Assembly (NCBI GenBank): GCA_013329055.1
Contig: DUKY01000015.1
Coordinates: 2,339 to 66,338, forward strand
Length of the DNA: 64,000 nt
DNA from: Nanobdellota archaeon
GTDB lineage: Archaea > Nanobdellota > Nanobdellia > Pacearchaeales > GW2011-AR1
Direction: 5' to 3'
Notes under the pieces: generated by a model
Database searches by the model: none
What the model was told of the DNA's origin: nothing
Seen by the model: the letters and a program-made list of their open reading frames with translations, nothing else
Program-made: the position numbers and the translations under genes
Part shown: one piece after another, positions 4,346 to 57,440 of the stretch
Layout of the letters: each line of letters begins with the position of its first letter
How positions within the stretch are numbered: the stretch's first letter is position 1

Positions 4346-4726
4346 ATGAACAAAATAATTTCTGGGAATATTAACAATGATATAAAAAATAATCCCAAAA
4401 AAAATGGTTGGTTTATGGGTCATTTTATGAATGACAATTCTCCTTTCAAAAATAGTGATTTTGAAATAAAATGGGGAAATCATAAAAAAGGTATTATTAA
4501 ACCCATTTTAGGATTAAATAAAACTGCTAAAACCATGAGCATTTTAATTAGTGGGAAAGTTCTTATTAAATTTACAGAAGAAAAAGAAGTAATACTCTCA
4601 AAGCAAGGAGATTATGTCTTTTGGGGTGCTGGTATATATCATGGATCCGAAGCATTAACAGATGCAGTTACATTAACTATTAGATGGCCTTCTATTCCAA
4701 ATGATCAAGAACTTTTTAAAAAATAA
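4346..4726 (+). CDS. Cupin-fold protein. The start is moved to the internal ATG at 4346.
   Basis: The track ORF 4262-4726 begins in low-complexity sequence. From MNKIISG onward the beta-rich pattern (WGNHKKG...ISGKVLIKF...GDYVFWGAGIYHGSEA) looks like a cupin. Confidence 0.45.
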   Translation: MNKIISGNINNDIKNNPKKNGWFMGHFMNDNSPFKNSDFEIKWGNHKKGIIKPILGLNKTAKTMSILISGKVLIKFTEEKEVILSKQGDYVFWGAGIYHGSEALTDAVTLTIRWPSIPNDQELFKK

Positions 4727-4852
4727 ATTTATTTTGAAATCTTTCCTTAAAAATAACTTATCTCTAAATGTTGCACTTTACTAGTGATTTAAGATATTAT
4801 AATAACACTTCAGAGATTATATACTTATCATCTTATTTTATTTTCTATAAAC

Positions 4853-4922
4853 TATAAATGTGTAAAATTATAAATGTGTAAAATTATAAATGTGTAAAAT
4901 TATAAATGTGTAAAATTATAAT
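4853..4922. repeat. 16-bp tandem repeat (tataaatgtgtaaaat), 4 full copies plus a partial copy
   Basis: Exact copies at 4853, 4869, 4885 and 4901, with a partial copy from 4917. Lies about 35 nt upstream of the ATG at 4956. Each unit carries a TATA-like ttataaat. Confidence 0.95.
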
Positions 4923-6125: not shown

Positions 6126-7102
6126 TTAATGGCAAAATTTTAATTACAGGGGGGGCAGGATATATTGGTTCACACGTTGTTAGGCATTTAATAAATGAGG
6201 GGATAAGCCCAAGTGACATTGTTATTTTTGATAATTTAGAAAGAGGAAATATTGAAATGATTCCAAAAGAAGTAATATTTGAAAAAGGAGATTTGCAAAA
6301 TAAAGATGATATTAAAAAAATATTTTTGTTGAACAAAATTTCTTACGTAATTCATTTTGCAGCATATGCTTATGTGGGGGAAAGTATGGTTTTTCCGGAA
6401 AAATATTTTGAAAATAATGTTTGTGGGGGATTGAACTTATTGAATGCTATGATTGAAAATAATGTAAAAAAGATAGTTTTTTCTTCTAGTTGTGCAATTT
6501 ATGGGAATCCTAAGGTTCTTCCGATAATGGAAAACAATGATAAAATTCCTATTAACCCTTATGGTCTATCAAAATTAATGTTCGAAGAAATTTTGAAATG
6601 GTATGATAAAATTCATGGTATGAAAAGTATTTGTTTAAGATATTTTAATGTTGCTGGTGCGGGAGATGGGATTGGTGAGAAACATGAACCTGAAACTCAT
6701 GTAATCCCTCTTCTTATTCAAGCATCAATTTCAGAAAATGAATTTAAAATTTTTGGTGATGATTATAAAACTCCTGATGGGAGTTGCATTAGGGATTATG
6801 TGCATGTTTCAGATTTAGCTGATGCTCATTATAAAGCATTGAATTATTTAATCTCTAAAAATGAATCTAATCAATTTAACATTGGTAATGGTAATGGAGT
6901 AAGTATATTTACTCTTATCAAAAAAGTTGAAGAAATTACTAGGAAAAAAGTAAAATTTGTTCTTCAACAAAGAAGAGAAGGAGATCCCCCTATCTTAACC
7001 TCCAATTCAACAAAAGCAAATGAAATTTTAAACTGGAAAGCAACAAAAGATATTAATGACATTATTAAAGATGCTTATCTTTGGGAATCAAAAAAAATTT
7101 AA
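6122..7102 (+). CDS. galE: UDP-glucose 4-epimerase
   Basis: ILITGGAGYIGSHVV, SSSCAIYG, YGLSKLMFE (YxxxK), DGSCIRDYVHVSDLA. Length 326 aa. Overlaps the upstream GT by 4 nt. Confidence 0.8.
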   Translation: MINGKILITGGAGYIGSHVVRHLINEGISPSDIVIFDNLERGNIEMIPKEVIFEKGDLQNKDDIKKIFLLNKISYVIHFAAYAYVGESMVFPEKYFENNVCGGLNLLNAMIENNVKKIVFSSSCAIYGNPKVLPIMENNDKIPINPYGLSKLMFEEILKWYDKIHGMKSICLRYFNVAGAGDGIGEKHEPETHVIPLLIQASISENEFKIFGDDYKTPDGSCIRDYVHVSDLADAHYKALNYLISKNESNQFNIGNGNGVSIFTLIKKVEEITRKKVKFVLQQRREGDPPILTSNSTKANEILNWKATKDINDIIKDAYLWESKKI

Positions 7103-16025: not shown

Positions 16026-16907
16026 ATGGAAGAATATAATTTATTAAAAAAAGATTTTTTTGGAAAAGAACAAAAAATTAATATTTATAAAAAAATTTAT
16101 GAAATAAGAGAATTTGAAAAACAAGCTAAAAAATCTTTTGATGTAGATTCAATTAAATGCCCCATTTATCTTTCAATAGGTCAGGAATCAATCTCAGCAA
16201 CTATTTCAGAATTCTTTAAACCAGATTATATCTTTACTCAACATAGGGGGCATTCAGTATATATTGCCTTTGGAGGTAACAAAGATAAATTAATTGATGA
16301 ACTTCTTGGAAAGGATATTGGGTGCAATAAAGGTAAAGGAGGTTCCCCCGGAATACAGGATTTAAATATTGGAATGATTGGACATCATGGGCTTATTGGA
16401 GAAAATGTCCCTCTTGCAGTCGGTGCAGCATTAGGGGCACCAGAAAAAAAAATTCTATGTGTATTTGGAGATGGTGCTGTAGAAGAAGATTATATCTTTT
16501 CTTCAATTACTTTTGCATTTACTCATAAATTACCAATATTATTTATCTGTGAAGATAATAATTTATCAATACTAACAAAAAAAGCAGAAAGAAGAAGTTG
16601 GGAAATAACTGATGCATTAAAAGGTATTGGTATGCCTGTAGCAGATATTCTTGATGATCCAAAATTAATCGCTCAAAAGGTAAATGAATTTAAAAATAAT
16701 TTGCCTGCATTTATCAATTGCAGGACTTGCAGACATTTATGGCATGTTGGAACCGGACAAGATGAAATACCTTCAATAGATCGGTTAAAAGAATTTAAAA
16801 ATTCATTATTAAATGAGGGAATTGATTTAAATGAATTAACTAAAATTGAAGAAAAAATTAAATTGGAGAATGAAGAATTATGGAAAAAACACTTGCCGAA
16901 ACAATAA
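16026..16907 (+). CDS. TPP-dependent 2-oxoacid dehydrogenase E1 alpha-like subunit
   Basis: TPP-binding motif VFGDGAVEEDY...ICEDNNLSI (GDG-x24-NN). E1-alpha-like length. Confidence 0.7.
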   Translation: MEEYNLLKKDFFGKEQKINIYKKIYEIREFEKQAKKSFDVDSIKCPIYLSIGQESISATISEFFKPDYIFTQHRGHSVYIAFGGNKDKLIDELLGKDIGCNKGKGGSPGIQDLNIGMIGHHGLIGENVPLAVGAALGAPEKKILCVFGDGAVEEDYIFSSITFAFTHKLPILFICEDNNLSILTKKAERRSWEITDALKGIGMPVADILDDPKLIAQKVNEFKNNLPAFINCRTCRHLWHVGTGQDEIPSIDRLKEFKNSLLNEGIDLNELTKIEEKIKLENEELWKKHLPKQ

Positions 16908-17788
16908 AAGAAATAACTAAGAATCATCTTGAATTGAATAATGGATTGATTTTAGGGCAATGTTTGAGTGCAGTTGGATGGGTAAATAATACTGTGCCGG
17001 ATACAAAAAATCTCGTTGAACTTCCAATGACCGATGTTGCAGGGGGAGGAATTGCTGCAGGAGCTGCAATTGTTGGAAGAAGACCAATTTTCGTAGTTCG
17101 GTTTCAAGATTTTATGTATTTAAATTCAAGCATGCTCATTAATTATGCTGCTAAAGCAAAAGAATTATTTGGTATTTCTGCACCGGTTTTTATTAGAGCT
17201 TTAGCTACAGAAAAAAAGGGTACAGGTCCAACACATTCCGGGATAATTCATAGCATGTTTATGTATGCTCCTGGTTTTAGAGTTTGTGCACCAATGACTC
17301 CGGGGGAATATAGAGAGATTTGGAAGGATTTTATGGAACATGATAGTCCAATGTTTGTAAGTGAACATCGGCATAGTTTTAATCAAATAGATGAAATTAA
17401 AGATATAATTTTACCCGATTCTCAAATAACTATTTATGGTATTGGTTATGCCAGATTTAATGTTTTAAAAGCCTTAGAAATTTTAACTCGACAAGGAATA
17501 AAATGCAATTTTATAAATCTTCTTTGGTTAAAACCATTAAAATTAACTCATGAAAAAATTGAATCTTTAACAAAAACCAAAATTGGTTTAGTAGTAGATT
17601 CTGGTTTTGAAATTGCCGGTGCTTCTCAATCCATTGCTTATGAATTGATGAAAAAAACAAAAATTTATGTGGAAGCATTAGGTGCAGAAGATAAACCTGT
17701 TGGAACTGCAGAAAGATATGAGAATGGTACCCCAAGTGTAGAAAAAATTGTAAATAAAGTAAAAGAATTAATTAAACTTAAAGATTAA
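16880..17788 (+). CDS. TPP-dependent E1 beta-like subunit (transketolase pyrimidine-binding plus C-terminal domains)
   Basis: PMTDVAGGGIAAGAAIVGRRPIFVVRFQDFMY and the C-terminal transketolase_C-like region. Overlaps the alpha gene by 28 nt. Confidence 0.7.
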   Translation: MEKTLAETIKEITKNHLELNNGLILGQCLSAVGWVNNTVPDTKNLVELPMTDVAGGGIAAGAAIVGRRPIFVVRFQDFMYLNSSMLINYAAKAKELFGISAPVFIRALATEKKGTGPTHSGIIHSMFMYAPGFRVCAPMTPGEYREIWKDFMEHDSPMFVSEHRHSFNQIDEIKDIILPDSQITIYGIGYARFNVLKALEILTRQGIKCNFINLLWLKPLKLTHEKIESLTKTKIGLVVDSGFEIAGASQSIAYELMKKTKIYVEALGAEDKPVGTAERYENGTPSVEKIVNKVKELIKLKD

Positions 17789-53223: not shown

Positions 53224-53763
53224 TTATTTATAATTTATGAATTTATCACGAATTAATCCATTTTCTTCGCAATATTTCCAAAAATCATCTGAAGTATCAA
53301 AATTGGGGCAAACGGTTATAATCTCTTTTCTTTTTTGATGAAGTTTTGCTTCACGACCTAATTTTGAAAGGTAAGTTCCAACAAGATAATCTTCTGGTGT
53401 AAGTATTTTATTCAATTCTTGATATAGCCCTGTAGCGATTTTTTGTTTCTGTTTATCTTCCCTGACCTCAATAAAATTTATTGCCCAATAATTTGGAAGT
53501 TCACCCAAGTCATTATAGACTCCTGTTTTTAAAACACCAACAATTGATCTTGGATCTTCTTTTATTTCTTTAGCCAAAATAAATCTTGTAATATCCGGAG
53601 AAATCATTTTTGCCGGAGAAAAAAAATTAAATCCTTTAAAAACTTCTTGGCCTTCCTGATTTATTCTTAATGGGATTTTCCAATTTGTTCCTTCCAGTAG
53701 TTCTTCTTTCAATTTTTCTTTGCTCTTGCATTCAAAATATAAATTTTTCATAAAATTATCCAA
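53224..53763 (-). CDS. Hypothetical protein (possible acetyltransferase-like fold; weak)
   Basis: 179-aa ORF. KQKQKIATGLYQELNK faintly resembles GNAT motif A. Confidence 0.45.
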   Translation of the reverse strand: MDNFMKNLYFECKSKEKLKEELLEGTNWKIPLRINQEGQEVFKGFNFFSPAKMISPDITRFILAKEIKEDPRSIVGVLKTGVYNDLGELPNYWAINFIEVREDKQKQKIATGLYQELNKILTPEDYLVGTYLSKLGREAKLHQKRKEIITVCPNFDTSDDFWKYCEENGLIRDKFINYK

Positions 53764-53793
53764 CTTATATGGTTTATAAATTTTTTTAAAATA

Positions 53794-53988
53794 TGCCCGG
53801 ACCTGTTCTCCTGCCTTCGCACGAAACTTTATGGATTATTATTTCTACCACGAAGTTACTCGTCGAACCCTTGGGTTCTTCATCCCAGAAATGCGCGGAC
53901 CTGTTCTCCTAACTTCGCTCGAAATCATTTGGATTATTATTTCTACCACGAAGTTACTCGTCGAACCCTCGGGTTCTTCATCCCGAAA
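53794..53988 (-). repeat. Two tandem units of about 97 bp directly 3' of tRNA-Gly, each a T-arm/acceptor copy split by an insert
   Basis: Units at 53794-53891 and 53892-53988. On the minus strand each reads ..CCGAGGGTTCGA-[about 66 nt]-GGTCCG(C/G)GCA, versus tRNA CCGGGTTCGAATCCCGGTCCGCGCA. Confidence 0.9.
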
Positions 53989-54060
53989 TGCGCGGACCGG
54001 GATTCGAACCCGGATATTCTGCTTGGAGGGCAGAAAGTCTAGCCATTGACCTATCCACGC
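53989..54060 (-). tRNA. tRNA-Gly (anticodon UCC by manual fold)
   Basis: GCGTGGA-TA-GGTC-AATGGCTA-GACT-T-TCTGC-CCTCCAA-GCAGA-ATAT-CCGGG-TTCGAAT-CCCGG-TCCGCGC-A. G1:C72, C2:G71, G3:C70 and A73 fit archaeal Gly. Loop position 33 reads C. Confidence 0.8.
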
Positions 54061-54143
54061 ATAATATTATTTATTAAACTTTTAGTTTTAAATTTTATTG
54101 TTTTTTATAATTGGTTTTTTAATTAATTTAAAACCTAAAAAAA

Positions 54144-54269
54144 CGCCCGAGACAGGATTTTGCTTTCAATCACTCTCTAAATTTTTGGATTATTTTTCTC
54201 GTGTAATTGTTCGACCTGCGATTTCAAACTTATTTGAATTTAAGCAGGATTCAAATCCTTTTTAAAAAC
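54144..54269 (-). repeat. Partial copy of the tRNA-Arg 3' portion with a T-loop insertion
   Basis: Minus strand: ATCGCAGGTCGAA-[about 52 nt]-AAATCCTGTCTCGGGCG, versus tRNA GTCGCAGGTTCAAATCCTGTCTCGGGCG. A 17-nt exact copy of the tRNA 3' end lies at 54144-54160. Confidence 0.85.
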
Positions 54270-54344
54270 CGCCCGAGACAGGATTTGAACCTGCGACCTA
54301 AGCATTAGGAGTGCTTCGCTCTATCCAGGCTGAGCTACTCGAGC
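54270..54344 (-). tRNA. tRNA-Arg (anticodon CCU)
   Basis: GCTCGAG-TA-GCTC-AGCCTGGATA-GAGC-G-AAGCA-CTCCTAA-TGCTT-AGGTC-GCAGG-TTCAAAT-CCTGT-CTCGGGC-G. A clean 75-nt cloverleaf. Confidence 0.9.
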
Positions 54345-54351
54345 AAATGGA

Positions 54352-54632
54352 TTTGGAAGAAAACTCAGAAAATTGAAAAAATTCTCTGGGACTTCAACAG
54401 ACAGTGCAGTTGAAGTGATTCGAACTCTTCCCATTCGAATCTTAATGCGGAAGAAAACTCAGAGAATTCTTTTCATTCTCTGGGACTTCAACAGACAGTG
54501 CAGTTGAAGTGATTCGAACTCTTCCCATTCGAATCTTTATGTGGAAGAAAACTCAAAGAATTTTTTCAATTCTTTGGGACTTCAACAGACAGTACAGTTG
54601 AAGTGATTCGAACTCTTCCTATTCAATCTTTA
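54352..54632 (-). repeat. Three tandem units of about 93-94 bp directly 3' of tRNA-Leu (acceptor/T-arm minihelix-like copies with a two-hairpin insert)
   Basis: Units at 54352-54445, 54446-54539 and 54540-54632. Each reads (minus strand) ..TGGGAAG-AG-TTCGAATC-[insert]-TTTCTTCC(A/G/A)(C/C/A)A. Confidence 0.9.
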
Positions 54633-54716
54633 TGTGGAAGAAAGGATTCGAACCCTCGCAGGCACTAAGCCACTGGAGCCTTAATCCAGCCCGTTTGACC
54701 GCTCCGGCACTTCCAC
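54633..54716 (-). tRNA. tRNA-Leu (class II, long variable arm; the anticodon loop UUAAGGC gives a formal anticodon of AAG)
   Basis: GTGGAAG-TG-CCGG-AGCGGTCAA-ACGG-G-CTGGA-TTAAGGC-TCCAG-TGGCTTAGTGCCTGC-GAGGG-TTCGAAT-CCTTT-CTTCCAC-A. 84 nt. Confidence 0.8.
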
Positions 54717-54750
54717 ATATAGTTTTTTAGAAGATTTAGTTTTTAATAAT

Positions 54751-55078
54751 TGTGGAGCGGGAAAACGTTTGACCCGAGCGATTTCATATGCTCTAAATCT
54801 GTTTACGTAACTTACGCATATGGGATTGCGAGTTGAGCAATTACGATTGCAATAAATTCTGAAAAGTAAATTTGAAAAATCGCAAGCGTGGTTGTGAGTA
54901 ACGTAGGCACTTCCACATTTTTGAGGAGTGGGAAAACTCGTTTGACCCGAACGATTTCATAAGCAATAAATTGCTTGCGTATCTTTAACGCGAGTGAGAT
55001 CGTGAGTTGAAAGTTTTTGTCCAACTTCCGATAACCCCTGATTTTGGACAAGGGCTTGAGTTTCTCCGGCACTTCCGC
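54751..55078 (-). ncRNA. Two head-to-tail tRNA-Leu 5'-fragment units (acceptor 5' strand plus D-arm split by structured inserts of 105-135 nt). Function unknown.
   Basis: U2 (55078->54919): GCGGAAGTGCCGGAG-[insert]-CGGGTCAAACGAGTTTTCCCACTCCTCA. U3 (54916->54751): GTGGAAGTGCC-[insert]-GGGTCAAACGTTTTCCCGCTCCACA. Neither has an anticodon arm or a T-arm. Confidence 0.6.
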
Positions 55079-55112
55079 ATTATTCTATTTAAAGCAATAA
55101 AAGAAATCTTTT
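55079..55112 (-). promoter_or_regulatory. Putative archaeal promoter of unit U2 (copy 1 of a duplicated 34-nt segment)
   Basis: Minus strand AAAAGATTTCTTTTATTGCTTTAAATAGAATAAT abuts GCGGAAG. About 30 of 34 nt match 55264-55297. AT-rich TATA-like elements are present. Confidence 0.5.
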
Positions 55113-55137
55113 AATCCTTTTGGATTTGAATTTTATT

Positions 55138-55263
55138 TTCGAACCCTCGCAGGCACTAAGCCACTGGAGCATTAATCCAGCCTAGTTTGATCCGAAGGTT
55201 TTCGCGAACTTTCCCAATTGCCCTTGATGTGAGCAAGGTTGTGAGTAGCGTAAGCACTTCCGC
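55138..55263 (-). pseudogene. tRNA-Leu-like gene body, either incomplete or requiring non-standard processing
   Basis: GCGGAAGTGC-[59-nt insert, 55195-55253]-CGGATCAAACTAGG-CTGGA-TTAATGC-TCCAG-...GAGGGTTCGAA, then unrelated sequence. No T-stem 3' strand or acceptor 3' strand follows. 45 nt match tRNA-Leu with 1 mismatch, at anticodon position 36. Confidence 0.6.
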
Positions 55264-55297
55264 ATTATTATGATTAAAGCAATAAAAGAAATCTTTC
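55264..55297 (-). promoter_or_regulatory. Putative promoter of unit U1 (copy 2 of the duplicated 34-nt segment)
   Basis: Minus strand GAAAGATTTCTTTTATTGCTTTAATCATAATAAT abuts GCGGAAG. Confidence 0.5.
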
Positions 55298-55301
55298 TGA
55301 T

Positions 55302-57440
55302 TTAATTAGGGAATCTTAAAAAGTTCATATTTCGAGTCGAAAGGGCTAATAATTCATTTTGACTATAAAGTTTGTTGTATATTGCTGCTTCTGTTGCAGG
55401 ATCACTACCCGAAAAAATTTCATAATAAGTAGCCCCTTTAATCTTTTTAATACTTTTAATACCTACTAAATGACCATATCCTGTTTTAGGATCCAACTTC
55501 TGAACAATCATATCCCCTGGTCTAAGATCATTAACATTATTGATTGGAATTAAAGTTTTAACTAATGAGCCTGTATTTGTATTAGCTTGTACACTTTCGA
55601 CATATTCTTTAAATTGTTGATTTTTAAGATTTTCATCGTATGTTTTAACAATAACTTTTCCAGAACTAAAAATGGAATATTCATCCTTAGAAAATCTTAA
55701 AGTTTCTCCATTAGCTATTTTATATCCGAAATCTTCAATGTTCCCTTTTTCAAGTTCATTATAGTGATATAAAGCATCAAGTTCAATTTGTGTATCTGAA
55801 CATTTTTGTTCTTTAGAATCAACAATTAAATTTAAAACATCTTTGTTTTGTTTTTTAAGTACTGGAGTTTTAAATCTATTCCCAAATGCATCATAATAAT
55901 AATACGTGTTAGTATTTTTTATTACCGGAAATCCTTCTATAAATTCAGAATAGCCAACTTGGGCATTTCCATTCTTTATACCTAATGTTTCTGCAAAATA
56001 TCCTCTTTGCTTTTCTGAATCAATTTTATAAGCAGAAGATGTATCCAAATTCAAATCATACACTTGGATTTTTTCAGGAGTATCATAATGAATTACCATA
56101 TCTGATTGTGTAGTAAAAACACTATCATCTTTAATATTTGTATAAACTTTTCCATTGTCTGCTTTTAAATTCCATGCTCCATTTTGAATTTCAAATTTTC
56201 CATCTGCATTTATATCTAATGAAATAGGTTTGTTATCCGGAGAAATTTTAGAAATCTCTAAATTTCCTCCATTTACCGTAAATTCTAATTTTCCTTTTCG
56301 TGGTGTAAAAGAATCTGAATATTTTTCTTCAATAAATTCCGGAAATATTTTGTTATCTTTTGTTAAACTCGAAGTAAAACCTTCTCCTCCTAACCAGATT
56401 TTTTTATTTCCATAATTAAAATAATTCTCGCCTTTATGTGACAAAGCATTAAACTCCTCGTCATAGTAAACATTTAAATCTGCATTCTGAGTTTTATGAT
56501 TTATTCCGTCAATTGTCGCATCAGTTCCTTCCAAAACCTTTACAATTTTTCCATTTTCAACTGTAACTCTTCCCATCTTTCCATCTAAACCTTTAATTTC
56601 ATTCCCATCAAATTTAAAATCACTTTTACTTTGATATATTGCTTCTCCTTTAGGAATATCTTCGCCCTTTAGAATTGTTCCAAAATCTTCTGAACCTTCA
56701 GGAATTTCAATTTTTGGCGGTTCATTATTATTAACATTATAAATAACCCTTGAATTAGGTGGTGCTTTAAAATCTCCTTTTCCAAAATCATAAACTCCTC
56801 CACTTTCATTTGTTGTAAAACTTGCATTAATGATCTTTCCTGTCGAATCAATCTCTATAAATGATGGAAGCTTAGCTTCACTTTGCGATTTAATATTTTC
56901 AAATTTTTTACCTGAGATTTCCAAACTTGCATTCTCTCCGAATGTTAACCTGCTAATTCCTTCTTTTTTTTCAAATGTAACCCCTTTTACACTAATCTCT
57001 TCTTTGTTCAAATTTTCACCAATTAAATCTCCGATTTGTACGTTTTCTCCACCTCCAAATTTCATTGCCCCTTCAATAATTTGTCCTTCTCCATCTATTT
57101 TTAAGGGTTCAATAATCTCTGCTCCATTTTGTTCCAAATTGTCCACCTTTTCGAGGGTATTAATAATTGGTCCTGCTTCAGGTGCAACTTCACTTGCAAC
57201 ACCCCTTGTTTCTTCATAAACCTTTGGCATAAGCCCTTGTGCATTTACATAAGTCATACATGTATTTACTTCTGAATTTGGGTCACAGTGTGTTAAAGCT
57301 TGGCTCTGTATTATTTGAACTACTAAAACTATAAGTGCTGCAACTACTGCCGTTGCTCCAATAATTCCTTCGCCGGAACTTGCTGGAATAGTCCCAATCA
57401 TTAACATCATTGCAAAAATAATAACCAATAGTTTTTTCAT
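55302..57440 (-). CDS. Large (712 aa) secreted or membrane-anchored surface protein, function unknown
   Basis: N-terminal signal plus a second hydrophobic segment (MKKLLVIIFAMMLMIGTIPA...IIGATAVVAALIVLVVQII). Gly/Asn/Lys-rich and beta-rich body. 4-nt overlap with the upstream gene. Confidence 0.6.
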   Translation of the reverse strand: MKKLLVIIFAMMLMIGTIPASSGEGIIGATAVVAALIVLVVQIIQSQALTHCDPNSEVNTCMTYVNAQGLMPKVYEETRGVASEVAPEAGPIINTLEKVDNLEQNGAEIIEPLKIDGEGQIIEGAMKFGGGENVQIGDLIGENLNKEEISVKGVTFEKKEGISRLTFGENASLEISGKKFENIKSQSEAKLPSFIEIDSTGKIINASFTTNESGGVYDFGKGDFKAPPNSRVIYNVNNNEPPKIEIPEGSEDFGTILKGEDIPKGEAIYQSKSDFKFDGNEIKGLDGKMGRVTVENGKIVKVLEGTDATIDGINHKTQNADLNVYYDEEFNALSHKGENYFNYGNKKIWLGGEGFTSSLTKDNKIFPEFIEEKYSDSFTPRKGKLEFTVNGGNLEISKISPDNKPISLDINADGKFEIQNGAWNLKADNGKVYTNIKDDSVFTTQSDMVIHYDTPEKIQVYDLNLDTSSAYKIDSEKQRGYFAETLGIKNGNAQVGYSEFIEGFPVIKNTNTYYYYDAFGNRFKTPVLKKQNKDVLNLIVDSKEQKCSDTQIELDALYHYNELEKGNIEDFGYKIANGETLRFSKDEYSIFSSGKVIVKTYDENLKNQQFKEYVESVQANTNTGSLVKTLIPINNVNDLRPGDMIVQKLDPKTGYGHLVGIKSIKKIKGATYYEIFSGSDPATEAAIYNKLYSQNELLALSTRNMNFLRFPN

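Follow-up and report, generated by a model that had tools for sequence, protein, structure and literature searches.

An apparently undescribed hairpin repeat joined to copies of tRNA 3' ends in a Nanobdellota archaeon and its relatives

Short RNA-like modules that occur in many copies, or that lie close to tRNA genes, have been described in several archaea. They include the elements of Pyrobaculum calidifontis that are similar to miniature inverted-repeat transposable elements (MITEs) and resemble C/D box small RNAs (sRNAs), and the tRNA-sRNA dicistrons of Nanoarchaeum and Pyrobaculum, where the sRNA in some cases follows the tRNA gene at a distance of a few nucleotides (Lui et al. 2018, PMC6009581). 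Here we describe K, an apparently undescribed structured hairpin repeat of about 58 nt, found in a 64-kb stretch of the Nanobdellota archaeon contig DUKY01000015.1 (this whole stretch is referred to below as the window) and in related contigs. The P. calidifontis elements and the dicistrons are its closest published parallels (PMC6009581). Like the former, K is a short archaeal module of RNA type with a kink-turn-like GA motif, present in many copies and sometimes placed between terminal inverted repeats (TIRs); unlike them, it has no C, D, C' or D' boxes, its would-be guides pair with each other, its loops are invariant, and it adjoins copied tRNA 3' ends, an association not reported for the P. 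calidifontis elements. K also resembles bacterial REP/REPIN sequences and other small structured interspersed repeats mobilised by RAYT/Y1 HUH transposases, as well as the palindrome-associated elements (PATEs) derived from IS200/IS605, in having a single imperfect hairpin tens of nucleotides in length with a strand-specific fold, an intergenic location, a high copy number (about one copy per 35 kb on two contigs) and stems that covary among subfamilies. K differs from these repeats in its archaeal host, a GA/GA foot, long invariant loops, the link to tRNA 3' ends and the lack of an identified Y1 transposase.

The locus is an intergenic gap of 1.54 kb between two protein genes (53763-55302), in which ARAGORN and the Rfam tRNA model both find three intact minus-strand tRNA genes: tRNA-Leu(AAG) at 54633-54716, tRNA-Arg(CCT) at 54270-54344 (64.4 bits with Rfam) and tRNA-Gly(TCC) at 53989-54060. 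Each of the three is followed by short units, each terminating in a copy of the 3' end of that tRNA (hereafter its tag): three Leu-type units of 94 nt, one Arg unit and two Gly units of 98 nt. In the Arg and Gly units the tag is preceded by K. We read K, with roughly even confidence, as a structured repeat, mobile or modular, that has come to lie within duplicated 3' ends of tRNAs, and the Arg unit as a decayed survivor of that process.

From its GA/GA foot upward, K folds into an 8-bp outer stem, the internal loop UGGUA/GUG, an inner stem of 5 bp and the loop AAUAAUCCAnnnn. In an alignment of 15 distinct copies over 61 columns, from which the Arg copy of the window was left out, the internal loop, the loop sequence AAUAAUCCA and the GA on both sides of the helix foot (G4 A5 / G55 A56) are invariant, and 95.9% of paired cells hold standard pairs. 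Changes on both sides were seen at six of the 13 pairs, compared with at most two in controls in which partners were slid by 1-3 columns, and RNAalifold independently gives the same two helices. Within the stems, 16 G.U cells stand against 4 A.C cells, an excess that points to folding of one particular strand of K. The copies were retrieved by scanning metagenome contigs with an 18-nt core pattern, GTGGTAGAANNAATAATCCA, which returned 53 loci, about 20 of them true relatives and the others chance matches in open reading frames (ORFs) of unrelated contigs. No Rfam family, whether ribozyme, riboswitch or other, matched K: the window and 12 related loci gave only tRNA, rRNA and RNase P RNA, a search of 53700-55400 at E<=10 gave nothing credible, and literature searches found no description of the element.

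A covariance model, R1, was built from the 15 copies, again excluding the Arg copy of the window. Applied to the window, it gives 84 and 81.5 bits for the copies in the Gly units and 31.2 bits (E=5e-7) for that in the Arg unit, with everything else at or below 18.4 bits; no further copy of the insert turned up in the window. The higher of the Gly scores belongs to the proximal unit (unit 2; 53891-53988, minus strand; Tandem Repeats Finder (TRF) period 98), with an intact K at 53903-53962 and a tag, GGTCCGCGCA, identical to the tRNA-Gly 3' end. In the distal unit (unit 1; 53793-53890, minus strand, also delimited by TRF), two outer-stem pairs of K (53805-53864) are broken and the tag, GGTCCGGGCA, carries one mismatch.

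The Arg unit (54144-54269, minus strand; delimited by sequence, repeat search and R1) is built of a spacer, a 5' fragment of the T-arm, a degraded K and a tag. The T-arm fragment, TCGCAGGTCGAA (54210-54221, minus strand), corresponds by sequence comparison to tRNA-Arg positions ~47-58 and includes TCGCAGGT, which is specific to tRNA-Arg. The tag, AAATCCTGTCTCGGGCG (54144-54160, minus strand), emerged from the repeat search as an exact 17-nt copy of the tRNA-Arg(CCT) 3' end (parent 54270-54286), made up of the 3' part of the T-loop, the 3' strands of the T-stem and of the acceptor stem, and the discriminator; a T7 run (54137-54143) lies directly 3' of it. A first-pass annotation of this DNA had proposed a partial tRNA-Arg 3' copy interrupted within its T-loop by an insert with a 7-bp terminal pairing, and both points are confirmed: CAATTAC (54209-54203) pairs with GTGATTG (54173-54167) over 7 bp, one of them G-U. 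The match of the insert to R1 covers 54160-54215 (minus strand), where K has lost 4 nt, its 3' GA foot now reads AA and its inner stem is weakened.

Contigs L115 and L085 of a sister strain carry the Arg unit in intact form, as three tandem copies with a period of 129 nt. The insert there, CAATTACG-TGGTAGAAGCAATAATCCATAAAGCTTCGTG-CGTGATTG, closely matches the core of the Gly insert within a different, yet complementary, outer stem, and the Arg insert of the window reads as a shortened, mutated version of it. L085, a short contig from another Rifle sample, was found via a 90%-identical homologue of the neighbouring 175-aa protein; longer contigs of the same strain (L115 and L132) hold the same tRNA cluster. 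Because the Arg insert is matched at E=5e-7 by a model built independently of it, and because the sister strain has an intact ortholog, it is, as judged from its sequence, a decaying copy of K and the same element as the Gly inserts.

That the Arg and Gly inserts are akin had initially been proposed from a shared 11-nt core, and the kinship reaches well past those 11 nt, with homology across the whole hairpin module of ~58 nt. The exact 11-mer, TTTGGATTATT, occurs twice in the window, at 53928 and 54184, each time inside a unit, and the remaining Gly unit holds a copy with one mismatch at 53830. With one mismatch allowed, 20 matches are found across the window against 13.5 expected, which is no enrichment; since this frequency is close to chance, the 11-mer on its own is weak evidence for kinship between the Arg and Gly units. 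A further relative had been suggested in the ttttggattt at ~55120-55130, and this one did not hold: there is no significant R1 match there (the nearest scores 12.3 bits, E=0.34), and the counterpart in the sister strain, AAATCCAAAAGGATT, belongs to the native flank upstream of the tRNA-Leu pseudo-copies described below, or to their duplication junction.

Two further features lie within the Arg unit upstream of K. An AT-rich motif about 28 nt upstream, TTAAATTCAAATAAGTTTGAAA (54222-54243, minus strand; identified by sequence comparison), is common to the K units that follow tRNA-Ile in L114 and tRNA-Ala in L121, and could be a candidate archaeal promoter of the TATA type. Just past the 3' end of tRNA-Arg, an inverted T-arm-like copy, AGGATTTGAATCCTGC, was read from the sequence (54244-54259, minus strand, with the T-loop motif on the plus strand at 54248-54258); it agrees with the reverse-complemented T-arm at 12 of 17 ungapped positions (shuffle p ~0.009). 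Similar inverted copies are present just 3' of the tRNA ends in the trailers of L098 and L127 (shuffle p ~0.005-0.02 for Arg, L098 and L127) and form long inverted repeats with the real T-arm. In the Gly, L098 and L127 units, the module GATGARGAACC, which precedes K, may be a relic of such an inverted T-arm.

K recurs at no fewer than 13 distinct loci in AT-rich DPANN archaea of one clade (Ca. Nanoarchaeia, Woesearchaeota-like), sampled from Rifle groundwater. Its tRNA contexts comprise Gly and Arg in the lineage of the window, Leu (L098), Ile (L114), the spacer Ala of an rRNA operon (L121) and Gln (L127). In all six, K has the orientation of the tRNA, and a T-loop-like TTCGA or TTCAA is located just upstream of it. 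The tag starts at most 1 nt from the 3' end of the K model in five contexts (the Ala tag was read from the sequence) and covers 9-17 nt of the tRNA, and the repeat can run on into the trailer, by 44 nt in L114 and 35 nt in L115, such that the repeated segment at tRNAs varies in length from 9 to 53 nt overall. A repeat that reaches into the trailer must have arisen by duplication at the DNA level, not by way of the mature tRNA.

About half of the distinct K copies lie at sites unrelated to tRNAs and have no T-loop-like flank, including three positions along a 102-kb contig and a further two or three on a second contig. In L092, K is located between 22-nt TIRs (AAAAATTGTTTTTAAGATTTAA) that are 143 nt apart (element L092:1047-1233), and in L108 the same TIRs stand 90 nt apart with K absent (L108:3095-3228), which makes the latter an empty version of the former. 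K is therefore dispersed over multiple loci and shows, in this filled and empty pair, the presence/absence pattern of a MITE. Within L121, a second unit has a copy running from T-loop to 3' end without K; from this unit and from the filled and empty MITE it follows that tRNA-end copies and K are separable. Further copies of the MITE-like element with the 22-nt TIRs occur in L125 and L128. L125 also holds a 68-nt element, TGAAAATTGCC...CACAGGTTA, nested in the 5' outer stem of two K copies (4690-4790 and 7000-7090, minus strand) and flanked by a duplication of ~10 nt, CGAGTAACTT. The K unit of L121 (L121:1-6316) sits in the 16S-23S spacer directly after a tRNA-Ala which itself has a 58-nt intron of the bulge-helix-bulge (BHB) type.

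If K is a mobile or modular repeat, it would be a modular piece of DNA capable of residing in a TIR-flanked MITE-like element, at other intergenic sites and in copies of tRNA 3' ends. At tRNAs it would settle at the 5' border of short 3'-end copies (T-loop to 3' end, often with trailer) directly downstream of the intact gene, and the arrays would then grow and shrink by DNA-level duplication or unequal recombination while distal copies decay. K itself would be selfish or neutral, and would probably be transcribed with or just after the tRNA into a hairpin RNA of kink-turn-like (K-turn-like) appearance. The first-pass annotation had envisaged a common, possibly mobile, insertion sequence targeting the T-loop. 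A shared element, associated with six tRNAs and present or absent in a MITE, is indeed what was found, and a common insertion sequence, mobile or modular, is probably a fair description; targeting of the T-loop is not general, given that about half of the copies are found at non-tRNA sites.

Array turnover can be followed between strains. Arg units number one in the window and three in L115/L085; Leu-type units three in the window and two in L115; Gly units two in the window, two in L115 and one in L085; and tRNA-Leu pseudo-copies three in the window, four in scaffold L001 and five in L115. L001 is the same as the window across the cluster, except for one extra pseudo-copy of ~200 nt (junction 54772; L001:8230-8430), and contigs L002, L003 and L005 begin within the cluster, so the array either differs between strains or breaks assemblies. 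Proximal units have perfect tags and stems, and distal ones are degraded. The 3' end of functional tRNA-Leu is CTTCCACA in the window but CTTCCGCA in the sister strain, and the tags of each strain include both sequences. By reading of the sequences, divergence between strains is ~7% in the units and ~6% in plain spacer; the two values being similar, there is no sign of extra constraint on the units.

Several observations weigh against a mobile or modular repeat. Co-orientation with the tRNA and exact abutment of the K 3' end on the tag would not result from random insertion into a pseudogene. The comparison of L092 with L108 gave no clear target-site duplication at the MITE insertion of K, where at most a GAG microhomology is seen and the only inverted repeat of K is its own stem. 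No transposase or recombinase could be tied to K, and a domain search of the six ORFs flanking the cluster in the window detected no integrase or transposase domain. The invariance of the loop is partly an ascertainment effect, the retrieval pattern having required the loop sequence. The invariant loops and GA/GA foot, together with K-turn geometry in several units, have the look of a protein-binding RNA and hint at function, and the units resemble small genes in having T-runs or hairpins after the tags and, in the Arg, Ile and Ala contexts, a TATA-like motif ~28-32 nt before K. Two variants on mobility were set aside: insertion at a fixed distance in the manner of CRISPR-associated transposons, considered for a gap of 48-58 nt between tRNA end and K, was dropped, as the 5' modules of the units lie at variable distances and no proteins are involved; and a viral or plasmid origin was rejected after a scan of IMG/VR for the K core gave only chance matches inside ORFs.

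The alternative that fares best, which we consider possible but on balance improbable, is that K units are small-RNA genes. Each would comprise a promoter, a K-turn-footed hairpin binding a protein of the L7Ae type and a functional 3' tail copying the tRNA 3' end. Such a tail would be complementary to the 5' acceptor strand of the tRNA and could serve in a guide, a decoy, a chaperone or a binder of CCA ends, or in tRNA-like 3' processing, and the Arg copy of the window would be a dying paralogue. The hairpin fits this well in that its foot and loops are invariant while its stems covary and its G.U excess is specific to one strand, yet no target complementary to the loop was found in 5S or 23S rRNA or in the 3' part of 16S rRNA. 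Gene-like organisation is suggested by a TATA-like motif 28-32 nt upstream (Arg, Ile, Ala), by T-runs or terminator-like hairpins after the tags and by an orientation that is always that of the tRNA, and there is archaeal precedent in the tRNA-sRNA dicistrons and MITE-like sRNA elements (PMC6009581). Genes of this kind sit uneasily with a copy number that varies between near-identical strains, with the degradation of K in the Arg unit of the window while the sister strain has three intact copies, and with the roughly half of K copies that have no tRNA tag and lie antisense to neighbouring genes. As to the tail, it begins exactly at the 3' end of K in five contexts, but it is not kept matched to its tRNA: tRNA-Leu ends in CTTCCACA while the tags of units read CCACA, CCGCA and CCAAA, and the distal Gly tags are mutated.

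The kink-turn itself would be a likeness of sequence. As in Kt-7 and the kink-turn of box C/D RNAs, all 15 aligned copies have tandem G.A/A.G pairs without variation, and the Gly, L098, L096 and L121 units appear to match the Kt-7 layout, with a 3-nt bulge and a C-stem of 3-5 bp (GUUC-GAC-GA...GA-GAAC). Among 19 copies checked, the GA/GA foot is present in 18, the exception being the degraded Arg copy of the window; a 3-nt bulge with a C-stem of at least 3 bp is present in five and missing or irregular in most others, so that, unlike in Kt-7, the C-stem depends on context, and we assign K to the kink-turns by inference. Two known sRNA classes were rejected. Box C/D was excluded for want of a C box (RUGAUGA), a D box (CUGA) and C'/D' boxes, only GA dinucleotides matching and the interior being paired; the sole C/D-box match in Rfam was sR45 in a Gly unit, at 16.1 bits against a gathering threshold of 40 bits. 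An H/ACA guide was excluded by the paired interior and the small, invariant internal loop.

Integration remnants offer an explanation that we regard as unlikely. The units would be attR-like scars, or cis-mobilisable elements, of plasmids or viruses whose integrase recombines between the T-loop and the 3' end of tRNA genes; they would have built up by accretion, with K as an arm of the attachment (att) site. Direct repeats of a tRNA 3' end, some reaching into the trailer to 52-53 nt in total, are the classic signature of such events, and here partial copies begin in the T-arm, inverted T-arm-like copies adjoin the tRNA ends, and preservation is best in the proximal unit, as expected under accretion and as in integrase att duplications, where the freshest copy is proximal. 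The T-arm is reportedly a sublocation at which integrases are known to cross over, according to work by Williams in 2002. The units nonetheless span only ~95-130 nt, and a single K module carries the tags of six tRNAs when an attP is normally fixed to one. K moreover lies inside the T-loop copy and not beside an uninterrupted one, and it also occurs in a MITE and at other sites with no att-like repeat. There is no integrase domain in the flanking ORFs, the K core is absent from IMG/VR save for chance ORF matches, and the compensatory changes and G.U bias point to a fold in a single strand and not to a duplex binding site. A distinct arrangement was observed in a bacterial contig of the candidate phyla radiation (CAZWUV010000001, L006:16750-17260), in which a small ORF that by eye resembles GIY-YIG lies after tRNA-Gly(GCC) (16857-16931) and before a partial 3' copy of this tRNA (~17190-17245), with a tRNA-like sequence containing a hairpin insert upstream (16756-16840); a different element, one that codes for protein and likewise duplicates the 3' end of a tRNA, may be present here.

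Slightly more doubtful still is a bolder proposal, that K forms the scaffold for archaeal small RNAs of a new class, which have a 3' tail copied from the neighbouring tRNA gene and work as guides or in a tRNA-binding ribonucleoprotein, the arrays being a record of their activity. As a guide, K RNA could home a mobile element or recombinase to the ends of tRNA genes, by analogy with the tRNA-matching homing guides of type V-K CRISPR-associated transposons. In a ribonucleoprotein, the UGG of the internal loop could pair with the NCCA end of the tRNA while the GA foot binds L7Ae.

Very improbable, in our view, is that the units are tRNA genes or 3' halves with a non-canonical T-loop intron, cut at a BHB or relaxed BHB motif by the splicing endonuclease. 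The introns of Thermoproteales tRNAs described by Fujishima and colleagues in 2010 include non-canonical ones that have reportedly been proposed to transpose between tRNA genes, and K resembles archaeal introns, and the split tRNAs of Nanoarchaeum and Caldivirga, in that similar short sequences interrupt different tRNA-derived sequences, the T-loop included. The host belongs to a group known for disrupted tRNA genes, intact tRNAs of related contigs have BHB introns in the anticodon loop, and the insert does lie between T-loop and T-stem sequence. A strict hBHBh' scanner, which recovered the anticodon-loop introns of the L121 and L127 tRNAs against a background of 16-23 AT-rich hits per strand, nevertheless gave no candidate bracketing K in the Arg (~54210/54160) or Gly units, relaxed motifs being judged by eye, and the intron reading entertained in the first-pass annotation falls with it. 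Excision of the Arg insert would leave a 9-nt loop, TCGAAAAAT, instead of the 7-nt T-loop, and the T-stem strands of the L098 unit no longer pair. Unlike introns, K is flanked by no complete exons (upstream of the Arg and Gly units there is no acceptor 5' strand, D-arm or anticodon arm); it sits in non-functional fragments downstream of an intact gene, occurs in none of the intact tRNAs examined and is also found in DNA unrelated to tRNAs. Split tRNAs were rejected as well: within the window, the only matches to GCGCGGA, GCCCGGA and GCCCGAG are the tags themselves in reverse complement, and the only one to GCTCGAG is the 5' end of tRNA-Arg, leaving no separate Gly or Arg 5' half in these 64 kb. 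The units are neither introns nor halves of split tRNAs and have no part in making tRNA-Arg. Finally, a chance resemblance of AT-rich words, the outcome that the proposed motif count was meant to expose, gains something from the near-expected one-mismatch frequency of the 11-mer (20 against 13.5), but is so improbable as to be negligible in view of the covariance-model match of the Arg insert (E=5e-7), its intact sister-strain ortholog and fifteen covarying copies elsewhere.

The repeats around tRNA-Leu are of other types. The three Leu-type units (54352-54632, minus strand; TRF and repeat search) each carry a module different from K, TTCGAATCAC plus two hairpins, and end in variants of the tRNA-Leu acceptor 3' strand (CTTCCACA, CTTCCGCA, CTTCCAAA); the module is also found away from tRNAs in L117 and L137. 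In this family, the second hairpin has compensatory changes and a loop that is inverted from one copy to another. A strict BHB-like motif was flagged in units U2 and U3 (54521/54460 and 54615/54554), where it competes with a stronger hairpin and is probably due to chance. Upstream of the gene, repeat search and sequence reveal three tandem tRNA-Leu pseudo-copies (54721-55262, minus strand), all of which are truncated, include a promoter region and are interrupted beyond position 10-15; over 45 nt of one (55138-55182) a single base differs from the tRNA-Leu gene, turning the anticodon into AAT. On the plus strand, one pseudo-copy contains a K-like foot, GAG-CAATTACG(41 nt)CGTGGTTG-TGAG (54832-54901; a weak R1 match of 18.4 bits, E=0.004), and a second such foot lies at 54946-55009 (weak, 17 bits, E=0.012). 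These hairpins combine the foot and outer stem of K with a different 41-nt interior; after them come the 5' end of tRNA-Leu in reverse complement and a T5 run, and the hairpins may represent a sister family of K.

The window has a G+C content of 28% and derives from a cellular genome, encoding archaeal-type ribosomal protein L3, MutS/MutL, CofD and SecDF as well as a lone 5S rRNA. CofD sequences identical to its own assign it to metagenomes of Rifle groundwater. The anticodon of its tRNA-Leu, AAG (A34), is shared by the sister strain (L115) and is, to our knowledge, unusual for an archaeon. Two public gene calls of 240 and 241 aa (P0001 and P0002) lengthen the 175-aa ORF upstream through the Gly units (53764-53990), one of them running through tRNA-Gly itself; these N-terminal extensions are an annotation artefact caused by the repeats. 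Elsewhere in the window, TRF found a 16-nt tandem repeat, AAATTATAAATGTGTA, at 4849-4921 (4.6 copies, 98% matches). A search of GTDB genomes for synteny around CofD showed that, beyond a 99%-identical species representative, the nearest species is 56% identical and has no tRNA cluster near CofD.

In very small, dense genomes, 1.5 kb of tRNA-derived repeats is unexpected. Should the units be merely decaying repeat DNA, they would still amount to an annotation caveat and a marker of strain variation: they explain the assembly breaks in the cluster and the false N-terminal gene extensions through the units, and tRNA scanners may be misled by the fragments. For wider surveys of these genomes, R1 provides a concrete covariance model. 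If K is a mobile or modular repeat, it would, according to our Rfam and literature searches, be the first family of this kind characterised in DPANN archaea, and the junction between K and the tRNA 3' end would present a testable case of insertion or duplication directed to tRNA ends, or of a tRNA-linked sRNA.

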